A stretch of DNA of 63,096 bases, counting the filler, from Reclinomonas americana ATCC 50394 (Eukaryota): NCBI GenBank assembly GCA_048213135.1. It is 8 parts of 8 records of this genome, joined end to end, with 100 filler letters (N's around TTAATTAATTAA, not from the genome) between each part and the next. Parts side by side here need not be neighbours in the genome. Positions count along the whole stretch, not along the records: positions 24,088 to 27,828 come from AFZH01020655.1; 7 more parts are not named here. One strand, given 5' to 3'. Of this stretch, positions 1 through 56,945 are shown in pieces (within the stretch, counting starts at the first letter, position 1; every line of letters starts with the position of its first letter). The translations under genes and the position numbers were made by a program. The notes beneath the pieces are model-generated. The model saw only the letters and a program-made list of their open reading frames with translations. It did no database searches and was not told the origin of the DNA.

Positions 1-3000
1 ACTGGCGGTCGGCAATCCAGCTCCGTTGACAGTAAAGGTGGCGGAGCCGGTGCTGGCCACCGAACCGTACGAGGAAACCGGCGCAATGTACGCCACCTGC
101 AGGGTGTCTAGACGCACTGGCGTCGCGCCCGCGGCGAATGTGGCACACAAGGCGTAGGCGCCAGCCGGGGCACCACGAGCATCGACGCTCAGCTGCAACA
201 ACTGGCCAGTGCTGGCCGGCAACGTGGAGATCGTGACCGGAGCAAATGCCGTGGCATCGTCGCACGCGCCGCTGGAGAGCACGTAGGTGGCACCGCTCGT
301 AGGCAGTGCGGCACCCGACACGCTGACAGTCGACGGCACGCTGCGGTCAATCGTGTCCGGCAGCACCGAGTTCACTTGCACCACCGTCACCGATCCAGCA
401 TCCACCGCGGCGCTGGTACCACTGACCGTGAAGCACAAGTGGTACACACCGCCGGCCACCTGGTTGGTACCAACGTCGAGTGCCGCGGAATCGCCACTGG
501 CGCTCGTGTTGACCGCCACAGTGGAATTCGGCACCGGGGTCGGTGACGAACATGCTGTCGACGACAACACTGCCGTGTTGCCGGTCGTCGGCAGACCGCG
601 ACCCGCCACCGTCAAGTGCTGCACCGTGTTCGACGCGACAATGACAGTCGATCCCTGGAGGCCGAGGACCTCCACCACATTCAGAGCGCCAATGTCGGCG
701 TACGTGGCCGCAGCCGACGCCTGGTAGCAGTAGCGGTAGTGACCACCATGCGTGACGCCATCCGTGGTCGCCACCGTGTAGGCAATCGACGTGGATGAAA
801 CCGCGCCCAGCGTGACACTGGTACCGGCCACCGGAACCGGCGTATTCGGCGGCGGGACTGTGCACGACACCGCGATAATCACGGAGCCGCTCACCAGGCC
901 ACTGCCGGTGATCTGACCCGAGGCACTCTGCCCGGCAGTCAGCATCGACACCGACACTTGCTGCACACGCAGAACCGCGAACGCCGGTCCCGTGGCGTAC
1001 TGTGAGTTGTTGCCAAAGCGGTAGCACAACACGCCAGTGGCACCGGCCGCAGTGGAGTCGGCGGCCACATTCAACATTTGCACGCTAGACGACGATCCCG
1101 CCGCCACAGGCGTGACAGTCACGCCCGGCATGCCGACAACAGTGGTGGCTGTGCCGCACGAAGTGCCGGCCACAACCACGTACGGTGCAGTCACGCCCGT
1201 CACATCGGTGAATTGCACGCCCGACGCCTGCACGAGCTGCTGGTTGCCAGTCACCACGGCATTCACGTTGAGCTGCGTCACCTGGCCGACATTGACAGTA
1301 CCAATCGGCACAAACGAATCGCCAGCCAAGTATTGCACGCACACAGTAAGTGTCGCGCCAGCCGGGCCGTTGTTGCCAAAGTCAATCGTGTACGAGCTCA
1401 AGTCCGCCGCACCACTGACCACCGACACATTGGTTCCGTCGCCACTGCCCGCCGCACCAGTGCTACATGTCGGCGACGCCGTGACAGCAGCCGCAAACGG
1501 CTTGACAAGGCCAGCGCCGGACACCGTAATGCGCGCAATCGTGTTGACCGCCACACTAGTCGGTGACACAGACGACGCCAGAGCCAGGTCGAGCTGTGCA
1601 GCCGGAGCATACCGACCACCCACCGACCACTGTGCGCACAGCGTGCGCGAGCCACCAGTGCTTGCGCTCGAGAATGAGACCGATAGATTGGCCGACGCAC
1701 CAGAAGCGTCCACTGACACCGCCGACACTGTAGTGGCTGCGTCGAGCGCATCAATGGGGTCGCACGAGCCGTCCGTCACCAGTTTCAAGGCATCCGGATT
1801 GGAGACAATGCTGGCCGGAATGCCGCTGCCCGCCAACACAGTGGTGTGCGACGTGCCCGGATCGACGGCCAACACCGACGGCGTAACGCCAGTTGTTTGC
1901 ACCACGGTCAAGGGTGCCACGTTGAACACGCCAGTAGTTGACGCCGGCTGCCAGCACAAGCGGTAGGAACCACCAGCGGCCGCCGAAGCGTCAATAGACA
2001 ATGCCGCATTGCTGCCGTCGGCGGCCACCGTCACTGTAATCTTGGACGATGGCACCACCGGCGTCCCGCTGCCGCACTGAGCAGCGATCGTGAAGGCCGA
2101 CGAGGTCGGGATGCTGCCGCCGGTAGCCACCAGTTGGCGGTTGGCCAGCGCCGCAATGGCACTGTCGTCCACACTCTGAATCAAGGCAATCGTCAGCGGC
2201 GAACCAATCGCTACCCAGTCGGCGCCAGTCGACCACTGCGCGCACAGCGACGCAGGGCCGCTGGGTGCCGCCGTGGCATCCACCGACAGCTGCAGCGAGG
2301 TGCTGGACGGCGTGCCGGTAACAGTAGCTGAAGCCACGGTGACCGGAGTCGGGTTGGCGCACGACACTGCCACCGTGAATGAGGCTGTGGCCTGCAACGA
2401 GGCGCCAGTGACGGCCACCGTCTGGACAAAGCCACTGGCGAGCACCGCTGGCGAGGTGGCCGACACGGAGACCAGTGTCAGCGAGCCGACGCTAAAGTAC
2501 GGATTGGAGGAAGAGAAGCGCAGGCACAGAGTGGCGGAGCCGGCAGAGGCACCATTGGCGGTCGTCACTTGCGCATTCAGCAGCGTCGGGTCGACCAGGG
2601 TAGTTGAAACCGTCACAGCGGCGACTGGAGTCGGCGAAGAGCAGCCGGTGCTAGAGAGCAACAGACCGCCCTGGAATGCCGCCGGATCCACCAAACCCGA
2701 GCCCGGCACGCGAATGGTCTGCGATCCAGCGCTGACAATGCCAATTGCCACAGGCGAGGTGGCGCCAACGCTGGCCACATTCAGCGCACCAGCAATCACC
2801 GGCTGCACCATTTGCGTCCATCGCACACACAAGTTGAACGGACCACCAGTCTGCGCCGAAGCGTCAGCAGTGACCGTCAACGACAGCGTGGTGCCGTCGG
2901 CCGACACGCTGTCCGCCGACACGCTCACACCGGACACAGCCACAGGCGTCTCGGTGGTGCAATCATTGGTCGACAGCACCACCGACGTGGGCAGCACGAG

Positions 3001-6000
3001 GCCAACTCCGGTGGCTTGCACTTGCGTGGCCGCGCTCACCGGCACCGCCGCCGTGCTCAAACTGGTGACGCCCGTGAAGGCGAGCGAGCCGACAGCCACC
3101 AACGGCTGGCCGTTCTCGAAGCGAGCGCATAGCGAGTACCGGCCAGCGGGAGTAACACCGCCGTCACTTGTCACGTCCAGTGAAATCAGCGACGACGACG
3201 ACGACGTCCACGCCAGCGTCACGCCAGCCAACGAGTCCCCGCCACAGGCCGCGGACGGCAGCTGCAGCGAGAACGCATTGGCGACACCATTGACGTTGGG
3301 CAGACCGGCGCCATTCACCAGCACCGAATTGTGCGTGCCAATCGGCAGCAGATCGGGCATCAGCGAAATCACTTGCACAATGTACACCGTGCCAATCTCC
3401 GTGTACTGGCTGGCCGAGCTGTTGGCCCAGCGCAAGCACACTGGGTACAGGCCGCCGGCCGCCGAAGTTTGCGTGGCAACGCGGAAAGCCATAAGTGTGG
3501 GATCGTGGTACAGCGTGGTAACTGTGACACCGGCCAGGGCCTCGGGCGACTCGCGCGACGGCGAGCTGCACGACACGCGACCAATCAGAATGCCATTGCT
3601 GACATTGTCAATGCTGGTCATGAATGTGCCGACAACGGAGATGCCGTCGCGTGTCTGACCGGCCACCACAGCCGCACCGTCGGGCGTCACTTGCGCCGTG
3701 GCCACCGTAATGGCCGGGCCCTGCGTCCACGGCTCAGTCGGCGACAGTTGCACGCAGAGGTAGTAGGCACCGGCGGCGCCAGCATTGACAGTAATCAGCG
3801 CACTGCTGCCAAATGTCGCAGTGACCGAGGCCGTGCCGGCCGATGCCGACATGGTGGCAAAGCCGGAGCTCGGCGACGAGCACGAGCTCGCAAGCTGGAA
3901 CGAGGCGGTAGAGAACGAGCTCGGTGTGAAACCGGAGCCACTCAGCTGCACAGTCTGCGACTGGTACGCCGTCACAGTCGACGGCACCACGGCCGTGACC
4001 GCCAGCACTTGCAAGGTCGACACGAACGAGTACGCCGACGAATCGTCAAAGCGAGCGCACAGCGAGTACGTGTCAGCGGCCGTCGACGGCGCAGTTACGC
4101 TAAGCACCACCTGCGTCGAAGCCAGCGAGGTAACCGACACACTGGAACCGGCGGCCGCAGCGCTGTCGCTGCAGGCTGTCGAGACGCGGAATTGCATGGG
4201 AGCCACAAAGCCAGCGCCCTCCACGGTCACTGCCACCACGGCGTTGATGAACATGGACTGCGGGCTCGTGGACACGGCAGCCGCCACATTAAAGGCGGAA
4301 ATCTGCACGTAAGCGCTGGTGCTCACGTAGCGAGCACACAGCACAAAGGCGCCGTGCGGAACAGCGCTCGTCGTGTCGATCTGGAACGAGGCCGACGACG
4401 AGGATGGAACCTGCACGTTAACAATCTGCACACCGCCAAGCATGGCTGCCGAGCAGTCGGTGGCGATCTTGAACGGTGCGTCAACATCCGTCGCAATCGC
4501 CGACACGAAGCCGGCACCGGAGAGCGCAATCGAGTTGCCAGTGGAGCCGGCCCACACTGCCTGAGGAGCCACAGCGGCGACCGAGACAATACCGAGCGGG
4601 CTCAACGCAGCGTACGCCGCGGATGCGTCGTAGCGGGCGCACAGCGAGTACGAACCGCCAGTCGCAGCGCCGGCGTCAATGCTGAGATTGAGCACGGTCT
4701 CCGACACAAACGTGGCCGACACGGACGACACTGCCGAAGTTGGGTTGGCACAATCGGCCGCCACCACAAACGACGGGAGCGTGTTGTTGAAACCGGCACC
4801 GGTAACAGCCACCTGCTGACCGCTGGCGGCCGGAATCAACGCCGGTACCACCGACGACACACCCGACACGGCATGAGCACCGACATCCACGTAGTCGGCG
4901 GCCGCCGACGGACGGAAGCACACGCGGTAGTTGTCGGGGGCGACGCCGTGCGCGTCAAACGACACGCTCAGCGAAGTGCTGGACACATAAGAGACTGGCA
5001 GCGTGGCGGTGATGGCGGGATCGTCGGGCGACGGCTTGGAGCAGTCGGCCGCCAAAATCCACGCCGAGTCGTCGGACGACGGCAAAAAGGCCACGCCGCT
5101 CACCACACCGGACACAGTCGTGCCAGCAAACTGCTGTGTCGGACTGACGCTCGACACTGTCGAGATGTTAATGGTGGACACGGCAACGTACGGCGACGTG
5201 TTCGTCCACCGCAAGCACACCGAGTACACGCCACCAGCGGCATTCGACGCATCGGCAGTCACAGACAACTGCGAGGGGTCGTCAAACGACAGCGAAATCG
5301 CCGACGCCGGGACCACCGGTGTCGACGAGCACGTGGTGGCGATAAACATGGGTGCGTCGACCGTGGAAAGGTCGACAAAACCGTCACCGTTCAGCGTGAA
5401 CAACTGGTTGGCCGCATTGGTAATGGCCATCGGTTGAGACGGCGCCACTCCGGCAATCACCACCGCACCACTGTCAGTGTACGGCGCAGACGGATCCCAG
5501 CGCACGCACAGACGCGCAGCACCGGCCGCCGCACCATCGGCATTCACCGTCAGCGTCATGGCCGTCGACGACGTGTACTGCGAGCTGACCGAAGCCACCA
5601 CCACCGGCGGCGAAACATCGCAGCTGCGAGCGACCACAAATGCGGCCGCGTCGCTAGACACATTCACCAGTCCAGCGCCCGTCACGCCCACCGTCTGTCC
5701 ATCCACTGGCGTCAACACCAGCGGCGACGACGGCAGCACCACGTGAGCAATGCTCAGAGAGCCGGCATCTGCGTACGCCGTCGTGTGCGACCAGCGGACG
5801 CACACGTGGTATGAGCCGGCCGCGCTGCTGGTGGCATCCACCAACAACGGCAGCACAGTCGGCGTCACTTGCTGCGATTCGATCGTGACTGGAGCCACCG
5901 ATGTCGGCGAACCGGCACACGAGGCCGCCACCACAATGCTGTCAATGTTGTCCACCAGCGTGTTGAGACCGTTGCCGAGGAGACTGACACGAGAGACAGC

Positions 6001-6491
6001 GCCACTGGGAACGGCCGCGGGTTGCACACCAGTAATCGCCACCACACTGAATGGCGTGCCAAAGGCCAGCGAGGGACTCTCGCTGTTGCCCCAGGCCACA
6101 CAAAGCGAGTACGCTCCCGGATCGACGCCGCGTGCGTCCACTGCGAGTTGCATGGAAGCCGAGGAGGTGAACGTGGCAACGACTGCACCGACAGCACCCG
6201 AGTATGGTGCGCACGTGACAGCCAGCGAGAACGCCGACGAACGATCAATAAAGCCAGCGCCACCCAATTGCACCGCATTGCCGGCCGATGGCGACAGCGT
6301 CAGCGGCGACACCGAGGTCACTTGCGCCAGGTTGAACGGCGAGATATTTTGCGGGGCCGAACCGACGCTCATGTAGAGAGCGTAGGCACCGGCCGGCGAG
6401 CTCGGCGCGACGGTCACCGCCACGTGGATCTCCGTGCTCGACACGACAGAGCCGACCAGAGTGACGTCGGGCACAGCGACCGACGGATCAG
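1..6491 (-). CDS. Giant surface protein, internal part: one uninterrupted exon of at least 2160 codons made of about 100-aa Ig-like (IPT/TIG-like) repeats; runs off the window start
   Basis: The same minus frame reads at both ends (6489: DPSVAVPDVTLVGSVVSSTEIHV...; near 1: ...SATFTVNGAGLPTAS). The ORF track lists no ORF terminating in this frame. The recurring unit is VxxVxP...GxG[LF]...vvaxxC...l.v.vda....G.Y.[LV]C.R[WF]....Y. Confidence 0.85.
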
Positions 6492-6591
6492 NNNNNNNNN
6501 NNNNNNNNNNNNNNNNNNNNNNNNNNNNNNNNNNNTTAATTAATTAANNNNNNNNNNNNNNNNNNNNNNNNNNNNNNNNNNNNNNNNNNNN
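6492..6591. other. Artificial contig spacer N44-TTAATTAATTAA-N44 (also 9329-9428, 15862-15961, 23988-24087, 27829-27928, 56727-56826, 61206-61305)
   Basis: Seven identical 100-nt units carrying a palindromic six-frame stop linker. Confidence 0.97.
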
Positions 6592-9238
6592 GCCACCAAT
6601 CGACACTGTGCCCGCTGGCACGAACGGCTCAATCGAGGCCCAGCGCACACACAGGTTCTTCTGGCCAGGCGTGGCCAACGCGGCACTGACAGACAAGTCA
6701 ATCTCCGAGGCGGCGACAAAAGTGCTTGGCAGTGCGCTGGCCGCCGCGGCTTGCGCGCAGGCCGCATCGGCAAACACAAAAACGCCGGGCTTGACCATGG
6801 CCGCGCCGAGGACGCGGACTGTGGACGGCACACCGGCGGGGATGTTGTTGGGGGACAGCGAGGTGACCGCCGCCAGCGACATGGACGACAGCGTCACGTA
6901 CGCCGCGCCGGTAGTCCAGCGCGCGCAGAGAGACACCACATCGCCCGACGCCACTCCAGTGGTGTCGAAGCGCAGCTGCACTTGCGTTGAACTCACAAAC
7001 GTGTTGGTGACCGCGGAACCGGCAACCACCACCGGCGAGGTGCCGGAGCAGCTGCGAGACAGCACGTACGCTCGGCTGTCAGCCGACGTGTTAGGCAAGC
7101 CGGCACCCGTCACTGGAATGTTGGGGATGACGGCTCGAATCGGCACGACGTTGACACCGACGGCCGTCACACCCGCAAAGGTGATGGGGCCGGCCGAGTA
7201 CCACCAGTGCGCCAGGGGAAGGCGAACGCACAGCTTGTAGTTGCCGGGCGCCGCCGAGGCGTTGGTAAACGAGATTCGCCACGCGCGGCACGAGATGTGT
7301 CGGGCGCACGTAATCTGCACGGACACGGTGGTGTGAGGGACAAGAGACACTGTTGGGAAGAGACAGATGGCAATACATACCGTAGCCACAGGGTTCGGAG
7401 CAAAGCCGCAGTTGCTGGCAATGACGAAGGGGTAGAAGAAGGCATGCGGTAGGCCGCGACCACGCAGCGTCAGTGTCTTGACTGTGGTGTCGATCGGGAA
7501 GGTGTTGGGAGTGATCTGGAACCGGCCAAAGCAGCGGAACGGAATGGCAGGCACATAGAAGGCACCGACCGACCAGCGGACGCACACGGTCCAGTCGCCG
7601 GCGACCACCGTCGTGGTGTCGAGAGACACGTTGAGCGACGTCGGGGTGACCGAGGTGACCGAGAAGCGCGCCGCAATCGTCGTAATGTCCACCGAAACGC
7701 AGCTCTGCGCCAGCACCACGGCATACTGGTCACCGCTGAGGTCCACAATGCCCGTGCCCGCCAGCGCGATCGGCACAATGCTCGGCACACCAGCTTCGGT
7801 GTAGAAGGTGGTGTCGTTGGCGTACACGGTATCCGGAGTGACACTGATGATCTTGGCAATCTGGGAGAAGCATGTCAACATAACATTACGTCAGCAACTG
7901 CGCATAGAGAAGCGCACACAAGTGGACACGAACCGTGAAACCGCCAGTCAGGTGCAACAGCGGCGCACCGACAAACGGCGACGCGCACACGTACAGTGTG
8001 GTGGCCGTCTGCTGCGTGGTGACGGTCAGCAGGCAGCGGGTGTGATCAATGTAGGTTGCCGAGGTGACTGAAGCAATCGTGACGCCGGTGCACACAGTCG
8101 GCGACGACGACAGGAACCAGTTGCCAATGGTGGGCGGCATTCCGGCGCCCACCACCGTGATCACGGTGCTGATACCGTGACCAACGGCCACTGGCGTCAG
8201 TGCCACCGTGCGAGTAACCACGTGGAAGGTGGAGAAGCTCTCGGCCACGGCGCACACGCCAGAGATGCAGCCGCAGAGCTGGAAGACGCCAGCCGTGTTC
8301 GAGGTGGTCACGGTGACGGAGATTTGGTTGCCTGCCGTCGACACCGCAACCTTGGTAACCTGGTGCACCAGACCCGTGGTCACAGTGCACGCCGTGGAGA
8401 CGAAGAACGAGGCCGCCGACGAGATGAAGCCCGATCCTGACGCCACGGGGTGAGCATCTGCTGAACGGGGAAAAGGGATAACAGTGACGACGCACCGAGC
8501 ACGGTCACGACAGCAGTGGACTGGACTGGAATAGCGGCAGGCACGACCTGAGTGACGGCGGCTGCACAGGCATGGTGTGAGGGGGAAGATGGTGGGAGGG
8601 GAGAAGAAAAGACGTGAATGTTACTATTGACTGTCAACACTCACCAATCTGCAGCAAGCCGGCGTCAATGTACGGGCCGCCGGCCACCCAGCGGAGGCAC
8701 AGACGGCGCGCGCCGACCACCAAGCCCGACGACTTGACGACTGTGACGCGGACCGACGACGAGTTGACGGCAGTAAAGGTGGAGCACGAAATGTTTGCCA
8801 CGGCCACCACACTAGCACCGCACGACGTGGCAATGACGCCGCCAATCGGTGCCAGCAGGCCATTGCCGTTGATGGTGATGAATGTGGATCCGACATACGA
8901 GGTCACAACAGCCGGCACGAGGCTGCTGACGCCGACAATCTGCAGAGCATTGGTGACGGCCACGTAGGCGGCGCCCGGCGACGGCAGCATGCACAGCCTG
9001 TAGTTGGCGGCCGGCAGCACCGACGTTGCCAGCGAGAACTGCAGGGTGGCGGCCGTGTCGAGACGCGACGTCACCGTCACCTGTACGCCGCTGACAGCCG
9101 CCGGCACGCCGACGGTGCAAGCCGCCGTCGAGACCACAAAGGTGGCCGACGGAGCCAGGAAACCGCGACCACTGACCACCACAGTCTGCACACCTCCCGA
9201 CAGCACCAGCAGGGCAGGGCTGATAGAGACCACGCGCA
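6592..9238 (-). CDS. Upstream exons of the same Ig-like repeat protein
   Basis: Same repeat (NYRLCMLP, RRLCLRW, DWTVCVRW, NYKLCVRL, KNLCVRW). Short GT-AG introns, e.g. 8644-~8565, ~7931-7861 and ~7380-7315. Confidence 0.8.
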
Positions 9239-9528
9239 CTGTTGACAGGGAGAATTAAATAAAAGAGAGTGAGGGGGGGGGGTGGGGGGGGGGGGGCAGG
9301 AAAGGAAGTGAATGGCTGGCTGGTGGAGNNNNNNNNNNNNNNNNNNNNNNNNNNNNNNNNNNNNNNNNNNNNTTAATTAATTAANNNNNNNNNNNNNNNN
9401 NNNNNNNNNNNNNNNNNNNNNNNNNNNNAAGGGGAAGAGAAGGGGAAGGGAAGGGGGAGAGAAGGGGGAGAGAGAGTGGATGAGCGATTTCTTCCGGAGA
9501 CAAGGAGACGAAGCAAGAGGCGACTCAC

Positions 9529-15802: not shown

Positions 15803-15961
15803 GTACGCGTCGTCGCTCACCGACCACGAATCTTTATCTGCTGCGCTGTGCTGAAATACCANNNNNNNNNNNNNNNNNNNNNNNNNNNNNNNNNNNNNNN
15901 NNNNNTTAATTAATTAANNNNNNNNNNNNNNNNNNNNNNNNNNNNNNNNNNNNNNNNNNNN

Positions 15962-21400: not shown

Positions 21401-23806
21401 TCTTCCTCCTCGTCCGCCGCGGGTCCATCGGGTTCATCATCACACCCGCCGGCAATAAGGCAGTCCTCGGCTGCCTCACTTGCACCTCCGGGCGACGGAC
21501 GTAATCGCCGCAATTCGGTGGATGAAGGCAGTGGTGCACCGCGTGTGCGCGCCCCTGCGTCGTCGGCCACCGCACCAATTGATGTGAGTATGTGGAGACC
21601 TGTGACTTCCACTTTCTGTCCATATTGTCACTGAACGAATGACACATGTGGCAGCCAAAAATCGGGTTCTCCGAAGCGCTGCAGTTGCGCCGACCAGACG
21701 CACAGTTCCAGGCAGAAATGTTACTGTTCGACGACGCCCGGCAACCGGCTCCTGCGGTGCAGCCGGCCATGCATCAAGTGGACCGAGCGAGTATCGAATC
21801 AGTTGTTGGCGACGACGACTACATTGCGCGACTCGAGCAGGAAGTGCAAGGCCAAGCGCAAGAGGAGTACGCACCAGAGGCATGGGAGCTCCATCCGTCG
21901 GCGGCCACTCCCACTGGAGGATGCACACCCGGTGGGCCCGACGCCGGTGTGTTTCGTTTCTCGACAATGCCACGTTTCAATTGCTATGCTAGGTTGGCTG
22001 ACTCGCGCTCTCAAATGTGCAGACTTCGAGGTCATTGGTCGCTACGTCGAGCAAGCCGAAAAGCTGTTCCGTATGTTCCGCGACCTGCAAAGTGACGCAC
22101 AGGCACGCAGAACAACAATCGACAATTTGGGTTCCAGCCTCGTGGCGAACAGGGTCTGTCGCTGCGCGCCGATTTTTTCCGTATTCATGTTGTAGCTGAC
22201 GGCAAGCCTTTATATTTCCTTGCAATACAGGATTGGCTCGAGTGCCTGAGGATCTTTTGTGACGGCCTCTCGGACTCGAACCGGTCGGAGAGTGCAGCCA
22301 AGGCGGAAATGATGGAATATTTGCAGCTCGCTGAGGACTGTGCGCGAGAAGTCGAGGACAGTTTGGAACTGTGGCGACGCAGCAATCAGAGTGCCATGAT
22401 GACTCACTCGGCCAGTGAGCTGGAGGAGTCTGTGATGCTGGACGTACGAAGTGGTCCGGCAGATCATCAAGTGCAGCTGTTCCGCGTGGACGGTGAAAGT
22501 GGCGTGTACGGCAGGAACGCTCCGTCTGCGGCGGCAGCAGCAGCAGCAGCAGCAGTGCAGCCGGTGCCAGCAGTCGACCCGCTGCAGCTGCCATTCGACA
22601 GCAGCCTCGGGCCCCCGTTCACCGCCGACACGCGCCTGCGAGTCTACGAAACGCGCTACCAACAGGACCTCTTTGCATCCATGTCGCTGTGGCTCAGCCG
22701 GCGCGCAGATCCCGAGTGGGCACGGTATAGTCCTCTGTGTCTTCGTCTTGGCGATGGCAAAGCCAACTTAATCGCGTTTTTTTTTGTTTGCACCACAGAT
22801 TGTGTGTGCCTCCTTCACAGTCACCCGACGTCGACTTGTCGTTTGCCAGATACCTGCGGCGAATGATGAATGGTGGCAGACCTGCAATTGTGTACCCCGT
22901 TGTCGACCCGCTTCCCCCTGTTCTGTTGCGTATGACTCGCTTTGTTCTCCGACCCTACTCGGTTCTCATGTTTCGTCCACGTAGCCCTATTCCGCCGCTG
23001 CCAGTTGTTCAAGAAGGTATGTCAGCAGAATTTACGTACTGTTCCAACCAGTTCCTCACTCTGCACAACTTGCGCGCGCAGTTCGTCAGCTGCGACTGGG
23101 CCAGGTCGGTGCCGCGCCTCGTGGCGTTTGTGGACACTGCGTCATAGTGTTTCTGAGTGTGTCTATTTTTCCGCCTTGCAGATCCGACCGTTCACGCACA
23201 TTAGCATCGACATTCCCGTCCCCGTTGCCGGCCGGGACGACGACCGTGCCAGCATCAAAATTCACATTGTCGTCGGCGATCCGCGCTGCGTACAGTGCAA
23301 CATTTTGTGCCTGCCCACGAATTCGGTGCGTCTCCCCGGCGCGCCCCGTTCGCAGCACGGCGGCTGACGGACTTGTTTCGCTTTTTCTCTCCCCCTCCCT
23401 CTTCAGCCGTACTTGCTCGATCTGCAAAACAATGGACCGGAGAGCCTCGGCAATGTGATTGAGGTCGAGGTGCAAGCAGCCAACCAAATGGCGGCAGATC
23501 AAACTGGTAAGCATTCTATTTTTCCGCTCGTGTGTGTTGAAGCTCACCACGCGCGGCAATGCACAGCCGATGCGCCAATCAAGGCCGCTGTGAAATTGAT
23601 TCCGCTCAACGGTGGCGTGTCGGCCATGACACACGTGGAGATGTTGGCGTTGATGGGTCGTCGTCGGTTGCAACCGGAGACCATGTCGGTGGATGTGATG
23701 CAAGTCCGCGAGTGCGTTCGGCGTTGCGTACTGAAGCAGTTTGATGCCAATTGTGCCGCACCGACATCACCAGTCGGCGTGGTGGCTTTTGGCGATTTTG
23801 CAAGCC
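18476..23806 (+). CDS. Large multi-exon protein: possible PIN-like N-terminus, Pro-Ala/Gln/Ser-rich linkers, macrodomain-like C-terminal region; probably continues into the PARP exons
   Basis: Continuous exon chain with short introns. VILDSSAFI at the N-terminus, (PA)n tracts, and IKIHIVVGDPRCVQCNILCLPTNS resembling the macrodomain GD..D.IVN.TNS segment. Confidence 0.55.
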
Positions 23807-23882: not shown

Positions 23883-24103
23883 GGAGGAGAGAGAGTGTGT
23901 TACGTACTACCTACTACGACGACGACGACGACGAACGACGACCGACCGTCCGTCCGTCGTCGTCGTCGTCGGTCGGTTCGTTTAGTTNNNNNNNNNNNNN
24001 NNNNNNNNNNNNNNNNNNNNNNNNNNNNNNNTTAATTAATTAANNNNNNNNNNNNNNNNNNNNNNNNNNNNNNNNNNNNNNNNNNNNGTAGTAGTAGTAG
24101 TAC

Positions 24104-24142
<39 letters not shown>

Positions 24143-24190
24143 TAGAGTAGTAGAGAGAGAAGAGAAGAGAGTGATGGGAGAGAGAGAGAA
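23833..24190. repeat. (GA)n, (ACG)n and (GTA)n microsatellites flanking a gap
   Basis: Direct reading of the sequence. Confidence 0.85.
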
Positions 24191-24267
24191 CAAGTAGAGT
24201 TGGCGGGGAGGAGTGGGATCAGCCGCTGTCCCTAGCTGACGCACGCTTCAACGCACGCCCAACAGAG

Positions 24268-25336
24268 CGTCAACATTATCGAGATCCGCAAGGTGTCGAA
24301 TCCGAAGCTTGAAGAGCTCTTCCTGCGACGTCAGGCGGCCCTCGCTGCCGAGCTTGGCTATCCTGTGGAGCCGATTGAGCTGTACCACGGCACCGTGGAA
24401 GACGCCTTGCAGTTCATTCTGAAGCACAGGTGTGCTCATCCGGAGCTTCTCTCTCTCTCCCTCTCTCTCCCTCTCACTGCTCTGTTTACACAGCATGTTG
24501 CCGCCTGCCGATTTCAACGTCAATCAGAACTGCGACAATGCGCGCCGACTGTACGGTGCGCTTTGGCTGCCACTCATTTATGTGCGTCAGCTTCGTCGCT
24601 TATCTACTTTGTGTGTGTCTGTGTGTATGCGCAGGCGAGCAAAGGTCCAATCCGCTGTGCGATGTGGCGTGCCAGCATTGCGCCAGGGACCCGTCGCGAC
24701 ATCAGCGAAGCACACGGACACCGTGTCATATGTTTGGGTGCGTACGTTTGTGCATTGGCCACCACAATGTCGATGATTTTTCCACTGATGGGTGAAACGC
24801 GCAGACTCGGAGTGTACTTTGCGAGGCAGCTCGCGTTGCGTAAACGTTTTTTTGGCTTTGCGCTCTATTCCAAGAAAGCCACTCACTGTTTGTGTGTGTG
24901 TGTGTTCGTTGTGCAGGAAATCGCACCGGTACACTCATGGACCTCGTCGAGTAATATTGCGGTGCAGGGTGCTGCTCGGACGCCCCGAAGAGGTGCAGAA
25001 GCTGAATTCGGAGGCTGAGCGACATGACGATGTCGCTCCTGCGCCCGGCTATCACTCCGTGAAGGGCATCGGTCACGGCAAGAACGCGCCACGCGATCAC
25101 CTGCACCTGGTCAACGACGAATGTTGCGTGTGTGATTTGTCTATCCCTGTCTGTCTGTGTCGCGACTCACCCTTATTCTTCTGTCTCGCAGACATGTTGC
25201 GTCGAGACGGCGAACATCTTGTTGTCTTCTGTGTATGTGTGTGTCCGCGACTGACCTCTTCGTTCTCGTCTCGCGCAGTATCTTCCACCCGTACCAGCTG
25301 CTGCCGGAGCTCGTCATCATCTACAACGCCAAGTAA
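24268..25336 (+). CDS. PARP/ARTD catalytic domain, tankyrase-like, H-Y-E triad (3' exons)
   Basis: Spliced: IRKVSNPKLEELF...LYHGT...CHMFGLGVYFARQLAKSHRYTHGPRRVILRCRVLLG...GYHSVKG...NDEYIIFHPYQLLPELVIIYNAK*. Confidence 0.88.
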
Positions 25337-25449
25337 AAATCCGGAGCATGTAGATGTGTGTGTTTATCAATTAGGATCATCGTTATCAAATTCATTAAAC
25401 AAGGGACAGCTGCAGGGTGGCTCGAAAAAAAAAAGAGAAGAGCAACACA

Positions 25450-26646
25450 TCATCGAGGTCTTTGCACTCGGCTTGGCACGGGCGCCATCGATTTGGCGGC
25501 GTCCCGATGCATCATGGCCCACACCGGTGCTCCCGGCTCCAATGCCGCCATTCCGTCGTCCTCGGTGCTGCCAAACGGTAGCACCGCGTTCACTCGCGCT
25601 CCACCAACGGCGCCCACAGCTTGCCTCGTGACAAGCACCGGCTCACCCATGGGCGCCACGCTTGGTCTCCTCATCTCTACGGCAGCGACCGATCGCCGGT
25701 CATTCCGAGGAACCACGGCCGAGGCGACGATGCGCGCCCTCGAATCTACCACCACGCTCGCTGCTCGTGGTCTGCTCCCACCATGTCCGTCCGCATCCGC
25801 CTCATTGATGACATGCAGCGCAAGTGCTGGCGTCCCTGCCAGTGCCCGCTGAGACAATGGCGGTGCAGGTGGCGGCTGGCTATAACCATGGTGCACGTGA
25901 CGACGGGGTGGGTGGCCGCGAAGTGGCGTCGCGTGTGCTGGAGCAGCACTGGCGATTGCATCTGCATCTCTTCTCGGCCGCGGCGGGGTGTTGGTATCCA
26001 TCCGCTTCGACGACGACGACGACGGAGACTGCGGTAATGTGCCCTGTAACCGAGATCGCGATGCCTCCTCCCCTCGTGCCTCCTCCTCCAGTTTTCGCAG
26101 CGATGTCATTGTGGCCGCCACACGCTTGCGTTCCAACTCGGTCTGCTCCTCGCGTTGTCGTGAGCGGATGCTGTATTGTCGGATGCGATGAGTGTGATGA
26201 TGAGACGGATGACAACTCGTATCGGTCCAGCAGCAACGCAACGTGCTGGCGATTGCGCACTCACAGCACCACACGCACGGGCACAGCGTGACGCAGCACA
26301 GGTTGGCCATACATCCACCGCACGTCTGCGAAACTGAGACGTGAGCGAAACCGTTAACTCGCAACCGATATACAGCGAGTGTGCTTTCGTCAACGAGCTC
26401 AGCGCCAGAAGTGGCTCAGACTCTTGTGCCTTGTACTCTGCACTTCCGCTGCGCTATGCTACTGTGTACCTCTCTGTGTCTCTTGCAAAGCGCGTGCGTG
26501 TGTGCCTACAGTAGATTGGTCAAACGGGCGCGTGTGTCTCACGCAACACAGCAATCACTCCGAAAGAAGCCGAGGCAACAGAAGTGCTCAGAGAACCATG
26601 CGGGCGAGACGCTCGCCGACATGTCGGTGCCCAGGTCGATGGCCAT
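25450..26646 (-). CDS. Hypothetical multi-exon protein
   Basis: Long terminal exon ~25450-26185 with a coiled-coil-like QREEQTELERKR stretch. The upstream small exons and the start are tentative. Confidence 0.45.
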
Positions 26647-27528
26647 GTGTTGCTTCAACACTGCCCACCAGGCTGTTTTTTTTCCACCACTACTCTTTTC
26701 TCTCTCGCCACTCAAATTGAAGAAAACTGGCACTCGACGAAAAAATCGGCCGCGACGCGAAATGCCGCAAGTGGGAAACTGAACGGGGTGTGCGGAAAGG
26801 CGCTTCACCAAGGAGAGCTCAGGAAGGCAGAGCGAGGGCGACCAATCGTCGGCGGGTAATGGTGCATGTGTGTTCGAAATGATATAAAATGTATCCGATT
26901 TTGGACATCTCAGCACTGCGAGGTGACGGACCGGCAGCATCTGCCCTTGGTGGGAAACTATGGAGAGGATCATGTTGTGCATCAACACCAAGAAATTTGG
27001 GGGCCGATCGGTGCCTTTCCCTCAAGATAACGGGAAAGTTGTTTTCGTCGTGACCGGATGGAGTTTTGCGTGAAATCGACGGTGGCGATCGTTACAATAC
27101 GGTGTACTCTCTGCCTTTTTGCTATGCGCGTTGACGACTGCACCTCGTCTCTGGTCGCGTTGCACATTCGATGTTTCCAGGTGCGACAACGGCAGCGTAA
27201 ATTCGGGATTCCTTCCTGCAGCTGCCCGAATTCGAAGTCTGGAGAGGCAGCATCGCACGTACCTGTGCTGTTGAAGTCGACCAACATCGCAACACCTTTG
27301 GCAAGACCACTGCGGTTGCTCCGTCAAGAATCGATATCGCGACGTCGCGATCGACGACGACGTCGTAACCTCGGCTCGTAAAGTCTCTCATCACATGCGC
27401 GAGTCTCGTCACCTTCACTAGTGCATAAGTTGCTGATGATGAGCGGACGTCGCGAGAGTTGTCCGCCTTCAAATTCTCCCTATCCTTCCGTCACCGTCGG
27501 TCGCGCTCTCCTCCACCCCACCCCTCTC

Positions 27529-28597
27529 ATGCACGCACACAAGCGAGTCATCCCCGTCGAGAGCGGCGACGATTCCCCGCTCTCCGGTGTTTCTGTCGGC
27601 GACGAAGGCGTCGGCTCCAGCAGCCATGCGGTGGGACGCAAGGGCGTGTCGGCGCCGGCGGCGGCACGAGCGCCTTCGCCAGCCACAGTGGTGAAGCGCA
27701 TGATGTGGGACGGGCAGCACTCGGCAGCCGCCAAGAGCATCTTCTGGTTCGGCTGCTATCTGTGGGTCATCGGCCCGCTGATGTTCTTCATGCCACGTCT
27801 AGCGGTCGTCACCTCGTTCCCGGATCTTNNNNNNNNNNNNNNNNNNNNNNNNNNNNNNNNNNNNNNNNNNNNTTAATTAATTAANNNNNNNNNNNNNNNN
27901 NNNNNNNNNNNNNNNNNNNNNNNNNNNNGTCGCGCGGCTGCCGTACGAGACGTGGCTGATTGTGGAGCCCATGGCGCGCGTGACGGGCTTCATTGTTGCG
28001 TGTGCGTGTGTGGGAGAATCTCCTGGATGTGTTTGCGAGATGTCTTTGCCAGAGTGAGAGAATTTCTTCTCTCTCTCTTTCTGCGTGCGACTCACGTGCA
28101 CTCACACCGGTGGTATACCACCAGGTGTGCGTCTTTGCGTACTACTACGTGCGGACATCGATGCGCGAAATGACTGACTTTTTCCGCTTCACCGTGCACG
28201 TTGCGTGTGCATCGTCTGCCTTTTGTTTGCTTGCTTGCTTCCCGAGACTCTTACGCGACGTCGGCGTTTCGTGTGTGTGCTCGCAGACCCGCATGTTGCG
28301 TCATGATGGAAACATTCTTTTTGGGATCGCTCCGATCTCCCCCTCTCGCTGCGGTATCGATTCTTACCTCCCTGGCATGCAGGTTGGTTCCCTTCTTGTT
28401 CGCCGCTCTGTACTTGGCCGGAGTTTTGCCACTGTTGCGCGTGTGTTATCCCCTTCGGCCCCCCAGTTCCCACCCACCCACCCACCCACCCCCTCGTCGT
28501 GCGCAGGAGTCAAGTGCTGGCTGGCGTCGGCGACGGCCTCGGCGCGCTGTGGACGGCTTTGGCCCTCAAAAAGGACGGCCACAAGGTATTCGTGTGA
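27529..28597 (+). CDS. Small membrane protein (about 4 TM), resembles an uncharacterised bacterial membrane protein family; spans a gap
   Basis: SAAAKSIFWFGCYLWVIG...MARVTGFIVCVFAYYYVRTSMREMTDFFRFTVHTRMLVPFLFAALYLAGVLPLSQVLAGVGDGLGALWTALALKK. Four introns restore the frame. Confidence 0.75.
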
Positions 28598-28670: not shown

Positions 28671-31600
28671 TTATCGTGGCAAGAGTGGCTCCTGTAGTGG
28701 TGCTCCTCCTGCCTGCTCCACTTGCTGTTGTGGGAGTGGTGGTCTCGATTGGCGCCTGAAGCTGTCGTCGATTGGGAGCATCCGAATCGACGTGCGGCTG
28801 CGCCACTCGTCATCCCTGGCGGTGTCGTTGATTCCTTTTTCGTTGTCCTCCCCATCATCGTCATCGTCATCGTCGACATCACCCCCGACACCATTGAGAC
28901 GCGGAGTCGTGCTCGCATCGGTGGTGCCGTCGTCGAGTACCAACTTGCGGCCGCGAATGGAGGAGCGCACTCGCGTAAGCAAGTCGCGCGCCCGCTGCCA
29001 CATTTGCAGCACGATTGGGATGGCCAGCACGGCACATGTGACCGACACCAGGACGAGACCGGCCACTGTCTGGAAGCCCGTGTCCGTGCGCGAAGCAAAC
29101 ACACTGGAGATGACCACCATCGACGCCAAGGACACATTCTCCAGCATGTTGTTAACCGGACTAATGTACGCCGGCCACACGATCTGTACCACAAAGAACG
29201 ATACGCAGGCCGTGAACAGAGCCATGGGCAGCGGACCCAAGGCGTCGTTTCTGGCCAGGGGGAAGAAAATGGCCAGCAGAATAACGCGGCGCAACAGCTG
29301 CAGCGCCTCCCAGTAGATCATGTTTGGTCGGTAGTTGAGATACAGTGGCTCTGTGACACGCATATGCATGAGAGCACATTTTTCTCACTCACTCTTGCGC
29401 GTGCACACGTACCGTAGCGAACGCGGTTTTTCCGCGAGAACGACGAGGCACCGCCGTGGCGCTGCACGTACCACATGACACCGAAGAGGACAACGGGGAA
29501 AGCCAACAGCACGCCCAGAAAGAAGCCAAAGAAGACTCGCAGGCCGGCGAACACGCTGGACGGGTGGGGGTTGCACTGCACGCTCGGCTGCAGCAACACA
29601 TACGACGCGGCACCGACAGACTTGCACGCAAACACGCCGATACACCTGTTCCTCACACAGTGTCAGGGTCGATAAAGTCTCTGCATGGGCGACAAGACGC
29701 AACGTCTCCAACAGGCCCTGGTATGCACCTACAGCAGCTTGCACCAGTGAGTTCACATGCCACACTACCGTTGCCATCGTTTGAACGCACGCACCAATCG
29801 CAAACACAACCGAGCTGCGAATGTATCGCGATACCGAGGCCGTGGATGAGATGAATTGTCGCACTCGCATGAGCTTGTCTGACGCAAGGGCATCCGCAGG
29901 CGGTCGCAGCCACATGCGTAGCAATCGATGGATGGCAAAAATGCACCACAGCGCAACAAAGTTCGCCAGCGGCAGTAGCACTGCATGATGCGTCAGCAGG
30001 TGGAGAGAAAGCACCTTTACCACCTATACTGACCTTGCGTCAGGAGCTCGCCGACACCGTCGACAAAGAACGGGCACGATTCGCCGACGGGAATCCAAAA
30101 CTTGACCAGGCGTGCCACATTGAGCACGGTGATATTCGGGTACCTGCGACCGCCGAGCATGAATAGTCAAGTTAGTTCAGCATTATATGAAGCTGTGCTG
30201 CGTCACACACAAAACTCACCAGAGCAGGCACATGGACTGGAGAAAGAAGAAAATCATCTGTACCACGGCGCATTCAGTCACGATGGAAAGCGAGAGTGCA
30301 TCCATATGCGGCGGGTTCGCGCACCTTGGTGGCTGCCACAGCTCCGCCTTGCGAGACCACGTGTTGCAGCAGTGCAATGAGGAACACTTTCAGGATCAGC
30401 CATGCCAGCGGCCAGGCGCTATTGTCGGTGCATTTGACACAGGAGGCATCCCATGATGCGTACCCGGGCTGCGCGTGTGTGCACGCGCGCAAGTGAGTTG
30501 CTAGTGCACAAAGTCGACTCGTGTGCGTGCACTTGCTTACCAGGCACTCGCCACACAGGACAGAGGTCTCCTGCCGGTTGGAACCCGGTTCGCACAGCGA
30601 TCCCCACGTTCCTGTGTGGAGGCTACTGTCAGACGCTCACGCATACGGGAACAAGGCAATCGGTGCAAACTCGGCGCACGAAACTTGCACCATCAGGTGA
30701 ATTGCACCACGTGTACGGACACAACCATGTATCGACAAGTGCCGACGAGTTCGTCTGATTGTATGCTGCCAGTGGCCACGTCCAGTAGTTGCTCTCGATC
30801 AGCAGATTAGAGCCTGTTGCACCCGCTCACAAATCAGTCACACGAGGCATTGACGAACGGAGTGCGTGCGTAACCTCCAGGACACAGTAGGTGTGGGTTG
30901 TCTGTACATGGATCACTGCCGCCGGTGGAGCACGAACACTTGACACACTGCTGATTGGAGACTAGGGTGCCGAGATTGTACGAGTCGTAGGGGCACGTCT
31001 GCAGAGTCGCTCATGAGAAGACAATACGCATTCTTTGTCTTCCGGCTGCGAACGCACCAGGCAACCGCGGTCATCTGCATACTCTTCGCCGACATCGCAG
31101 GGCGACAGGGGGATCTGAACATCCAACTGGTTCTGGAGTGGCACACTCAGAGCAGCGATTCGTATCTCCAACATCAGCGGGCCACGACGGTCCGAGGCGT
31201 ACGGCACAACGATAATGCCGTCGTCCGACGAAACGAGGCGTTGCTGCGGCCAGTTCAATCAGTCACAGTGGTGGTGGTGGTTCGCCCACGCACAACACAC
31301 AGCGACGACATGAAGCTCACCGCTGTTCGACACGCCGTGCAGTTCACTTGCACAATGAACTGCGCACACGGCACACGTGTGAGCACCGAAAACCAACGAG
31401 TATGCACTTGCAGATCCACCACGCAACGCCGTCCAGTGTGCGTGTGCGGTATCCACTGACGTCAACCAACTCCACTGTGACATTATACTCGGTTCCAGAA
31501 AACACAGGCACCACATCCGACAGCAGGCGCATCATGATCGGGGCTGTGCGAAGTGCGATGTGCTTCATGAGCACGACGACGGAAACACTGGCAAGAAAGA

Positions 31601-43492: not shown

Positions 43493-45991
43493 ATGGACTG
43501 GAACCCGGCATTGCGCTTCCTGTCAACACTCACAGTACATCGCACACACACGCAGAGACAGAGACATGGGCATTTCGGGCTCAAGTGGAAGGCAACTGGT
43601 GCTGGAGGTGCGGGCAATGCGTTTTCTCCACAGATGCACACTCGGGGGGTTTTTGTCCGACGCCACTCTCTCTCTTTCTCTCTCTCTCTGTATGTGTGTG
43701 TGCAGGTGGTGGAGCGCGACATTGAGGACACACACGAGGAGGTCATGGTGCTCACGTATGACACGGATATCCGTGAAGCACCGGGTGCGTGGCACATCAT
43801 TTTGTTGTTATGTATGTCTCTCTTTGTTTCCTCCTCACTCATTTTTCTGCAGCTCATTGGCGTGCTGCGCTTGGTGATCGTGCTCTGGAAGCGCTGCTTC
43901 AACGTTGCGTGACACAGAGACCTTTCATTCACTCTCATTGACATTGATTATTTTCTCCTGTCTCTCTCGCACACAGAACCCGCTCGTGGCGTTGCGTCTC
44001 TCAGTCTCACACACACACAGACACAGACACACACACTCATGTCTTCAATTATCGTCGTCGCACACAGATCCGCTGGTGTGATGTGAGAGAGGGTGAGCCA
44101 CTGGCTCCGCGTGTCAAGTTTGTGGTGCTGGTTTCGCTGCAGGAGGAAGGCCATGAGTCTGGAGAAGAGGTCAATTCACATCCCGGCTCCTCGCGCAGTG
44201 GTGGAACGACGATGACTGACTTTATTTGTGTGCTGGGGCGTGCAGGCCAAGGCGCGGATTTCGCGAGACTTGCGACAGGTGCACCATTTTGTGGCCAGCC
44301 AGCGTGTGCGGTCGCTGTCGTTGCCGCTCTTCGTGTACACTGTGTTGCCGCCGAGGGAGTTGTGTAGTGTGATGTGCTGGCATGTGTGGGGGAATTGCAG
44401 GCTGACGTGTGCACGCCGCAGAGTCGTCGAGGTGTTTGCGTCGGAATTTCATAGGGCATTCGAGTACATTGGCACCGGCGCCGCCGATGCGGCAACTCAA
44501 CTGACCCGTGTTGTGGTGTGCGTCAAAGGTGGCGGCAAAATACGGCAGGTGAGTGTTGGAAGCTGTCTCGGGAGAGCGAGTGCACTGCTATGTCGCTGAA
44601 TCTGCATTGCCTCGTCCAGCTGTTCAGCCAGTACATTGCGAGCATGTTCCCGCAAGAGGCCGCTCCTCCCGTGTGGGAGCTGTTCTTCTCCGATCGCCAG
44701 TGGTACTCGCTGAAGCAAGAGGTATCCGACTACATCGAGAGTGCGACTGGTGACCTTGTTCCGCTGCGCATCTGCCCGGCGCCCGACAATCACGAGTGTC
44801 TGCGCGTCCTTGTTTGCCGCTCGCGAGATGAGGTGTGCACACACGCACACGTATTCCGTGCACTCATCAGGTTGACTGACTGTATTCCCTCTCCTCCTTT
44901 GTGGTTGTATCGCAAGGTGGTGGACTTTACAGCCAATCAACGGTATGCGATCCGGCGACGCGAACCCGCGGTGCCGGTGCGATCACAATCTTCGCCTCCG
45001 ACTTCGTCTTCGACACCAGCTGCCGTGGCAGGATCTCAATCGGCGGCACCACCGAATCCTCCCGCGGCAGCAGCAGCACTGACATATGTATCGTCCCCCT
45101 CGCCACAGTCACCGCCACGGCCAGCACCTGCAGCCGCCGCCGCCGCCGCAGCAGCAGCAGCAGCTCCGCCTCCTGCGTCCCCTGCGCAACAAGCGCCTGC
45201 ATCGCAAGCAATGTTCGATACTGTACCAGAGGTGAACGTCTGTAGGCTTTTCTGGTAATGCGCACGTGAAGCTCTAACAACCTGTCTGTTGTTGCGATGA
45301 CAGGTGTTTTCGCGGCACAGTGCGGCGGAGCTGCATCCAGTGCACCTGACGTGGATGAAACCTGGAGGTGCTTTTGTCAAGGGCGTCTTTGTGCGCGGTT
45401 CTTGGGATAGGTATCAGCAGGCGCTTCGTCTTCGTGCCGTGGGGCACGATCGCTACGAGGTGACACTTCGAGTGCCGGCTGGGTTCTACTTCTACAAGGT
45501 CAGAACACACAATGTGTACTGTGCTCTTGAAGCCACGCTAACGGAAGTCTGGTGCAGTTCACGGATGACCAGTCTGCCACGCTGGCGAGCGAGCGTATCA
45601 AAGTGGTCAAGGAGCAAGGGACCCTGCTTCCCTTCCACCCACTGCATGTGCCTGTGACGTTCAGTGTGGCTCGACAGCACGAGCGACAGCACACCGTGCT
45701 GGAGTTCTCAGCCTCTAATGGTTACTTTCTGTGCGCATTCTTTCCGAAGACCGATGAAGGCGAGGCACTGGCGCGAGCTATCCAGGAGAAGAGCAGGTTG
45801 CGAGCGTGTTTTTCGTCTTTTTCTTTCTTACCGAGTGTTGAGCAGACTTGTCCATGCACAGCCAAGTACCACCCGATCCTGTCGTCTTCTTCACTGGCCG
45901 TTGGCATGGAATCGAACTGAAGACGGAACCATCGCAACTACCGGACCCACAGTGGTGCGCGGCAGCACTGGACCGAGTGTCGGCGCTTTAA
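43493..45991 (+). CDS. Protein with a C-terminal CBM48/AMPK-beta-type glycogen-binding module
   Basis: HPVHLTWMKPGGAFVKGVFVRGSWDRYQQALRL...YEVTLRVPAGFYFYK|F matches the CBM48 pattern. It is preceded by a Pro/Ala linker. The start is tentative. Confidence 0.6.
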
Positions 45992-53294: not shown

Positions 53295-54003
53295 TTACTT
53301 GCCCACTTGCGCCACCACCAGATCCACCACCTCGGAGGGCGACTCGGGGAACTTGAGCTTGCGCGGTGGTCCCTTCTTGACACCACTCCACACCAACGAA
53401 TCGTTGACTGCAGGGCGCAGCAACGAAGAGTAAGGCGAACAGCGAAGAACAATAGCTGCAGAAGGGTAAAGGGAGGCGTACCGGTCACCTCAAAGCTGCC
53501 TCGCCTGCAGAGAAAAGGAGTCAGTCGATGATAATCATGAATGCATGCATGCACGTAATGCATATGATCGCTCTCTCGTCTCACCGCGGCTTGTCAGTGT
53601 TCAACGCGACCGTGAGGTCCGGGAAGCGGTCCTGCAACGCCGCCACGACGGCGTTTGCATGCCGCTTGTACACGGATCAGCTCTTGCTGTGGTAATGCAC
53701 GTCAGCGCCTGACACACTCTACAGAGGAGAGAGAGAGAGATCGCACCAAAACTCAATGGCCACACGCATGCCCGACGCTCCTGCCGTCGACGACGAAGCG
53801 GCGGGTGTAGTCGCAGTCGCAGTCTCCTCCTTGGCGGTGGCGGCCTTGGGGGCGCGCTTGCCTCGCTTGGTGGGCGGAGCTCCCTCGGCCTCTGCCGACT
53901 CTGCTTTCACGTCCTGCTCCTCCTCTGCATCCTCTGCCACCTCTTCCTTCTTCACCGCGGGCGCCTCGGAGGCGGCGATCTTCGACGCACTTCGCTTGCG
54001 CAT
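53295..54003 (-). CDS. SELENOH: Selenoprotein H-like (Rdx family) with in-frame UGA at 53679-53677
   Basis: Spliced ...RVAIEF-C-K-S-U-SVYKRHA...NTDKPRRGSFEVTVNDSLVWSGVKKGPPRKLKFPE...; basic N-terminal extension. Confidence 0.92.
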
Positions 54004-54074
54004 GGGAGGAGAAAATGCAAACACGAAAACTCCGACCGGAGAGTTCGCTGAAAAAACCTCCGCCTGCGCTGCTT

Positions 54075-56522: not shown

Positions 56523-56945
56523 GAGAATGAGAAGTTTTTTTGCGAAAAATGAGAATTTTCGAAAAACGAAGCGACCTTCTCCGCCTCTCCTCCTTTCCCC
56601 AGACAGGGACGACAGCGAAAGAGAAGAGGCGTGGAGATCATTGGATGCTCACTGGGGGTGTGCGAGCGCGCACCTTTTTTTCGCACAAATCGATTCGATT
56701 TCCACTGGATGGCCGACGGACAGACCNNNNNNNNNNNNNNNNNNNNNNNNNNNNNNNNNNNNNNNNNNNNTTAATTAATTAANNNNNNNNNNNNNNNNNN
56801 NNNNNNNNNNNNNNNNNNNNNNNNNNGAGAGTGCGCTGTGTGACAAGTGTGCACGCTGTCATGCGGTTGTAGTAGTAGTGGCTAAGGGGAGGCACTTGTG
56901 GTCAACGGTGGTGCGTGTGTGTGTGTGTGTGTGTCTTACGCGGCC

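Follow-up and report, generated by a model that had tools for sequence, protein, structure and literature searches.

A putative 4-nt internal exon directly after the catalytic glutamate codon of a PARP-type gene, flanked by two short introns with complete splice signals

At recursive splice sites and in stwintrons, splicing takes out one long interval in two steps. In plants, internal exons of 1-15 nt (microexons) are documented, with stronger flanking splice signals and a proposed sequential removal of the adjoining introns (PMC8831610). Examples include the 1-nt exons of APC11 and VPS55, and a rice gene in which exons of 5 nt and 12 nt are adjacent (PMC8831610, PMC4674806). Plant microexons are reported to be often misannotated, and 4-nt exons to be missed by standard aligners (PMC8831610). 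Here we describe a candidate exon of comparable size, ACAT (25192-25195, + strand), in a PARP-type gene located in the window, that is, the whole 63,096-nt stretch of DNA that was analyzed. We consider it likely that ACAT is a real internal exon of 4 nt in this gene, probably included constitutively; if present in the mRNA, it would be one more exon of the already documented 1-15 nt type.

The window consists of separate contigs joined by 7 linkers of the form N44-TTAATTAATTAA-N44, an all-frame stop spacer (6492-6591, 9329-9428, 15862-15961, 23988-24087, 27829-27928, 56727-56826 and 61206-61305), so that neighborhood across a linker is no evidence of linkage. Because the linkers join contigs, the sequence before 24088 need not adjoin the PARP gene in the genome, and because the contig that carries this gene spans 24088-27828, the gene is represented by its 3' part alone, namely, the last 218 codons, downstream of the linker. 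We rebuilt this part by hand as 7 exons that join in one open frame. The introns between them are all of the GT-AG type and measure 64, 79, 67, 82, 69 and 83 nt, with GTTGCGT as the donor in 3 of the 6. The features of the locus, in order, are:

23988-24087 (no strand): contig-joining linker N44-TTAATTAATTAA-N44, beyond which the 5' portion of the PARP gene is missing
24236-24429, + strand: exon encoding LYHGT, the His block of the PARP catalytic domain; matched by Pfam PARP; true 5' end uncertain
24430-24493, + strand: intron, 64 nt, donor GTGTGC
24494-24555, + strand: exon, 62 nt
24556-24634, + strand: intron, 79 nt, donor GTGCGC
24635-24737, + strand: exon, 103 nt, Cys/His-rich insertion, with MFG at its end
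24738-24804, + strand: intron, 67 nt, donor GTGCGT; gapless profile alignment across the junction
24805-24834, + strand: exon, 30 nt, Tyr block (GVYFA), aligned without gaps to the GiyFA block across both junctions
24835-24916, + strand: intron, 82 nt, donor GTTGCGT; junction within the gapless alignment
24917-25122, + strand: exon ending with the catalytic Glu codon GAA (25119-25121) and a T, the first base of the Tyr codon
25123-25191, + strand: intron I1, 69 nt, GTTGCGT...CTCGCAG, branch-like CTCAC (A at 25169), acceptor CGCAG
25192-25195, + strand: putative 4-nt exon ACAT, providing bases 2-3 of TAC (Tyr) and bases 1-2 of ATT (Ile)
25196-25278, + strand: intron I2, 83 nt, GTTGCGT...CGCGCAG, branch-like CTGAC (A at 25254), acceptor CGCAG
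25279-25336, + strand: last coding exon, T plus 18 codons, starting T ATC TTC CAC, with the stop codon TAA at 25334-25336

A first-pass annotation of this DNA had already placed a 4-nt exon here, and its positions, from GAC GAA T (25116-25122) through I1, ACAT and I2 to T ATC, proved accurate to the base. Its reading of the frame also holds: inclusion of ACAT yields GAA TAC ATT ATC, whereas removal of 25123-25278 as one 156-nt intron results in a frameshift. The branch-like motifs that it listed are indeed present, with the A of CTCAC located 22 nt, and the A of CTGAC 24 nt, from the respective acceptor. The structural interpretation itself, a 4-nt exon immediately following the catalytic Glu, is backed by the splice signals, by the enumeration of alternative models and by comparison with 117-118 PARP relatives.

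These relatives trace back to a search of prokaryote genomes with the back-translated motif GKGIYFAD, which lies far from the Glu region; 34 loci were detected, 11 of them with complete WGR-PARP genes. One of the 11 WGR-PARPs, with a query region that took in the C-terminus, retrieved 120 proteins annotated as PF00644, and 118 of these make up the PARP profile, P0061 and P0069 having been left out for their aberrant C-termini; the profile is drawn from a single clade, the WGR-PARPs, mostly bacterial. Against this profile, the spliced product scored 33.4 bits (E 1.6e-12, single sequence), and its His block, G-x-YFA block, GYHSV block and Glu strand all aligned. In the triad blocks, LYHGT corresponds to LFHGS, GVYFA to GiyFA, and N-D-E pairs its Glu with that of h-n-E. 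These blocks supply the His, Tyr and Glu that constitute the catalytic triad of the PARP (ARTD) domain. Judging by the profile match and the alignment of the triad, the gene encodes a putative PARP-type ADP-ribosyltransferase (PF00644).

Taken one by one, the exons at 24236-24429 and 24917-25122 scored 19.2 bits (E 9.1e-4) and 11.5 bits, respectively, with Pfam PARP, both under the gathering score of 26.7. In hhalign comparisons with the PARP alignment, the exon at 24917-25122 matched with E 1.2e-4, aligned only as far as the GYHSV block, and the last exon alone paired its ELVIIYN with NEFIIYK of the family, a very weak match (E 0.2, probability 0.3%). Single-exon queries found no homologous proteins in large protein collections and no match at E up to 10 in the PDB sequence search. 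One match obtained with a single-exon query among protein representatives (P0002) is a zinc-finger repeat protein and was discarded as irrelevant. A metagenome scan for relatives produced one locus (L056), a chance match inside a bacterial multicopper-oxidase gene, and in viral contigs, the back-translated motif KGIYFAD hit 21 loci, none of which encodes a PARP.

The closest described proteins, the WGR-PARPs of Armatimonadota and relatives (L022, L026, L029 and others; P0003-P0122), have the catalytic blocks HG[ST], G-x-YFA, GYHSV-x-G and N-x-E-aromatic-I-I in common with the protein in the window, and the spacing from Glu to Gln and from Glu to the C-terminus is equal. Unlike the WGR-PARPs, the protein in the window contains a Cys/His-rich insertion, a longer loop before the Glu, and Phe in place of Tyr at +4. 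The insertion, of about 35-40 residues, is located between the His and Tyr blocks (24494-24737, + strand) and is missing in the 118 relatives; it might bind metal.

We compared 966 splice models of the locus, comprising all single and double GT/GC-AG introns of at least 40 nt with an inner exon of at most 40 nt, along with 5 named forms. Splice signals were regarded as credible if they included a donor of the strong classes seen in the window, a YAG acceptor and a branch-like motif. All three are combined in 5 of the 966 models: the microexon model (33.4 bits), retention of I1 (25.9 bits), a donor at 25233 (25.5 bits), retention of I2 (25.2 bits) and skipping of ACAT (24.5 bits). Among these, the microexon model leads the other four by at least 7.5 bits. 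A further model, with an in-frame alternative donor at 25130, scored 26.5 bits. The alignment runs through the Glu strand (profile 136-223) with the microexon model only, and ends at 205 with the skip, alternative-donor and I1-retained models. The microexon model is also the only one of the 966 that contains E-[YF]-[IVL]-[IVL]-[FY]. By protein score alone, the microexon model ranks 17th, with 16 of the 966 models scoring more, up to 39.6 bits. In these 16 models, the loop before the Glu is deleted and ELVIIY of the last exon mimics the Glu motif; all of them depend on one or more donors that do not belong to the strong classes (GTCACGG in 14, GC in 2), and 15 of the 16 rely on a GAG acceptor.

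The positions following the catalytic Glu were read in 117 of the 120 relatives, those left out being P0061, P0069 and P0071, the last of which contains no H[ND]E anchor. Across the 117 proteins, position +1 is occupied by F (106), Y (10) or S (1), position +2 by I (115) or V (2), and position +3 by I (87), V (29) or L (1); Tyr is found at +4 in all 117, and position +8 holds Q in 116 and A in 1. The microexon model places Y, I, I and F at +1 to +4, and Gln at +8. The Phe at +4 speaks against this model, Tyr being present there in 117 of 117 relatives. For the alternative-donor model, with C, C and V at +1 to +3 and Y at +8, the same residues are found in 0, 0, 29 and 0 of the 117 relatives, respectively. 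The microexon model leaves 20 residues after the Glu, and the printed tails of the relatives, assessed by eye, comprise about 19-23. From the genetic code, it can be calculated that four random bases placed in T-NNNN-T would encode an aromatic residue followed by Ile or Val in 1 of 32 cases.

The donor shared by I1, I2 and the 82-nt intron is overrepresented in the window, where GTTGCGT occurs 37 times compared with 12.6 on average for its permutations (examples are at 24835, 25123, 25196, 51260 and 51723 on the + strand and at 56239 on the - strand). A branch-like motif plus YAG follows within 43-150 nt in 26 of these 37 cases, and in 591 of 1745 cases (34%) for the 139 other permutations. 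The gapless alignment across both junctions of the 30-nt exon independently confirms the GTTGCGT donor at 24835. Overall, GTTGCGT appears to represent a major class of donors in which intron position +3 is U, and it can be read as GTGCGT with an extra T. Literature searches for GTTGCGT as a donor, with the heptamer written as DNA or as RNA, turned up only primers and unrelated RNAs. There are 3 instances of YAG-N4-GTTGCGT in the window, more than the 0.65 expected by chance; the other two are located, by eye, inside ordinary exons. ACAT is bordered on both sides by complete spliceosomal intron signals, and it is needed for the frame and for the conserved residues.

The pyrimidine fractions of I1 (0.83) and I2 (0.80) are the highest among the 6 introns of the gene, the others ranging from 0.25 to 0.69. 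The T fraction of I1 is 0.42, compared with 0.17-0.21 in the exons. On a crude coding-versus-intron measure, I1 read in frame gives -1.07 bits per codon; by the same measure, the five other introns, in three frames, give -0.02 to -1.43, and four exons of the gene -0.24 to +0.19. In composition, I1 looks like an intron rather than like coding sequence. A permissive intron finder based on open frames was rejected as too noisy, having returned 1047 and 1324 candidates.

What weighs against the microexon is that the frame is open without it as well: I1 is stop-free in frame and 69 nt long, a multiple of three, so that an exon extended to 25195 would also be open and would continue in the same downstream frame. 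The first-pass annotation overlooked this option, an alternative that keeps the frame and is more natural than skipping. In this main, in-frame rival to the microexon model, the exon runs on through 25123-25195 and only 25196-25278 is spliced, either as the sole form or as a retained-intron isoform, which adds a net 23 Cys-rich residues (the Tyr gives way to 24 new ones) between the catalytic Glu and the strand that comes next. Just one ordinary, well-signaled intron would then be required, another Cys/His-rich insertion already exists in the gene, and introns beside microexons are reported to be commonly retained in plants (PMC8831610); an annotation pipeline would probably choose this model. 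We nevertheless regard it as unlikely. It scores 25.9 compared with 33.4 bits, with an alignment that ends before the Glu strand, and it treats as coding a segment that is equipped with all the signals of an intron (the heptamer donor, a branch-like motif at -22, a pyrimidine fraction of 0.83, and CGCAG) and is intron-like in composition, with T at 0.42 and a codon measure of -1.07 bits that falls inside the range of the other five introns. Moreover, a stop-free in-frame stretch of 23 codons is not rare by chance, with a roughly estimated probability of about 0.15. Very improbable, in our assessment, is a single 149-nt intron that extends from the GT at 25130 to the acceptor at 25278, leaving ACAT unused and placing Cys-Cys-Val after the Glu. 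Such an intron would preserve the frame and the stop codon, and the first intron of the gene likewise has a donor of the GTGTG type. However, the resulting protein scores 26.5 bits and its alignment, too, stops short of the Glu strand; Cys at +1 and +2 is found in 0 of the 117 relatives, and the Gln is moved to +9, where 1 of the 117 has Gln. Of 77 instances of GTGTGA in the window, 34 precede intron signals, near the 34% background, compared with 26 of 37 for GTTGCGT. In addition, the intron would be about twice as long as the others of the gene, and the inner branch site, the pyrimidine tract, the acceptor and a perfect second donor would all have to be coincidences.

The first-pass annotation had also suggested that skipping of the microexon could act as an activity switch, an idea that found no support: skipping would swap the last 20 residues for an unrelated read-through tail, which looks like a dead product rather than a regulated form. 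In the broader version of this proposal, ACAT is an alternative exon, and either skipping or retention of a flanking intron switches the enzyme off. Skipping would use the same strong outer donor and acceptor, and both alternative products would be devoid of the normal active-site strand. Still, skipping would yield a protein ending in about 117 frameshifted read-through residues, as is typical of error products, and the signals flanking ACAT are the strongest in the gene, which favors efficient constitutive use over a switch; we find regulated use decidedly unlikely. There is, finally, very little to recommend the view that the locus is a gene fragment or a decaying copy, with an apparent microexon that is functionless. 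The contig linker leaves no more than the last 218 codons of the gene, and single-exon queries revealed no close relatives in large protein collections; yet seven exons join in one open frame, the His, Tyr and Glu blocks are kept, the C-terminal length is usual for the family, and the truncation is an assembly boundary rather than a lesion.

If ACAT is a microexon, as we favor, each flanking intron would be recognized as its own unit (intron definition), through the GTTGCGT donor, the CTSAC branch site 22-24 nt from the acceptor, the strong pyrimidine tract and the CGCAG acceptor; recognition as a unit is probable because the introns are short and their signals complete. As 4 nt are too short to accommodate the factors of both neighboring splice sites at once, stepwise intron removal is most likely. 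Whichever intron goes first, ACAT would end up at the edge of a long exon, with the other splice site unchanged. The mature mRNA would then read GAA TAC ATT ATC, so that Tyr and Ile follow the catalytic Glu immediately. The last 18 codons, which encode the final two strands of the ADP-ribosyltransferase fold, would thereby return to frame. Should the outer donor be joined to the outer acceptor instead, ACAT would be skipped, giving rise to the frameshifted read-through tail. We infer the inclusion of ACAT in the mRNA, its constitutive use and the order of intron removal from what was observed directly: the sequence, the splice signals, the frame and the fit to the family.

If the exon is real, gene models without ACAT yield a PARP whose active-site strand is wrecked, either by a frameshift of the tail or by 23 residues inserted behind the catalytic Glu, and the enzyme would then be misjudged as inactive or odd. 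The expectation of the first-pass annotation that automated annotation would miss this exon appears plausible in light of the plant literature (PMC8831610). It would further follow that protist genes with very short introns contain exons only a few bases long, and that family profiles are able to recover such exons where RNA is lacking.

The two introns that flank ACAT might be related to each other. In a comparison of the 118 intron-like segments in the window, which form 6859 non-overlapping pairs, I1 found its best match in I2 and vice versa, with a local score of 26 after exclusion of donor and acceptor, compared with a mean of 8.0 (SD 2.1). Both contain the block CGCGACT-S-ACC, which surrounds the branch site, and share TCTCGC ahead of the acceptor. 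The next best intron pair reaches a score of 25 and is purely microsatellite, and part of the I1-I2 score comes from TG/TC-rich sequence; the kinship is therefore suggestive but unproven. It is conceivable, although we lean toward the opposite view, that I1 and I2 are siblings, one having been copied precisely 4 nt from the other, which would have created the microexon. No exon bases would have been duplicated or lost in the process, and intron transposition accounts for so precise an insertion better than a tandem DNA duplication, from which duplicated exon bases would be expected; a possible route would be, for example, reverse splicing into a neighboring site within the same transcript, with subsequent reverse transcription and recombination. 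Further copies of I1 or I2 were not detected in the window, where the shared block has 5 matches with at most 2 mismatches, none of them convincing, compared with 2.6 expected. A family of introner-like elements was considered and rejected: within the window, the only strong match of I1 among the 118 segments is I2. If the two introns are indeed siblings, they would represent a rare and fairly fresh footprint of local intron gain and of the birth of ultra-short exons; the apparent kinship offers a small, testable case for the origin of such exons and of new introns.

Elsewhere in the window, we observed further candidate tiny exons between strong intron-like intervals, for which no homology backing was found: one of 14 nt at 43977-43990 (within 43904-44067, + strand) and one of 12 nt at 23005-23016 (within 22925-23081, + strand). 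There are 8 such tandem arrangements in the window, one of which is an artefact of the 30-nt exon, compared with a mean of 0.42 in 200 shuffles. At 28200-28390 (+ strand), two GTTGCGT intervals are 8 nt apart (ACCCGCAT, about 28287-28294), and the inner junction, CGCAG-AC...CAT-GTTGCGTC, is similar to the junction around ACAT; the coding strand is ambiguous here because a membrane-protein-like ORF is present on the minus strand at 28671-29384. An isopentenyl-diphosphate isomerase gene is located at 56051-56384 (- strand), with a match of the downstream exon to TIGR02150 (E 4.9e-15), and a 58-nt GTTGCGT intron appears, by eye, to split a Cys codon just before this exon; the NCBIfam match covers the downstream exon only, the junction itself having been read by eye. 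An exon with a sirtuin-type motif, likewise identified by eye, directly follows a GTTGCGT intron at 51780-51850 (+ strand). In contrast to the intron-dense PARP gene, an intron-free ORF of more than 2100 codons, which runs off the window, occupies 1-6543 and 6544-7890 (both - strand); this long ORF contains repeats of about 95 residues with a weak match to IPT/TIG (E 3.7e-4). A short-chain dehydrogenase ORF lies at 53719-54690 (- strand; PF00106, E 2.6e-18). Rfam and tRNA scans of the window gave no match.

Compared with known systems of stepwise intron removal, the ACAT locus shares with recursive splice sites and stwintrons the predicted removal of the interval in two steps, the difference being that, at the ACAT locus, 4 nt would stay in the mRNA. 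A stwintron or another nested intron was rejected as an interpretation, since I1 and I2 lie side by side, each is complete, and neither interrupts a splice signal of the other. A recursive splice site, equivalent to a zero-length exon, was rejected as well: 4 bases separate the AG (25190-25191) from the GT (25196-25197), and the frame needs them. Unlike the plant cases, ACAT is supported by sequence and family comparison, and it is found in an intron-rich eukaryote, in a gene with introns of 64-83 nt and with the GTTGCGT class of donors. Like the ultra-short microexons of plants, it is an apparent internal exon of a few bases, located between two spliceosomal introns with strong flanking signals and needed for the frame and for conserved residues, and in both cases, stepwise removal of the introns is the proposed mode of splicing.
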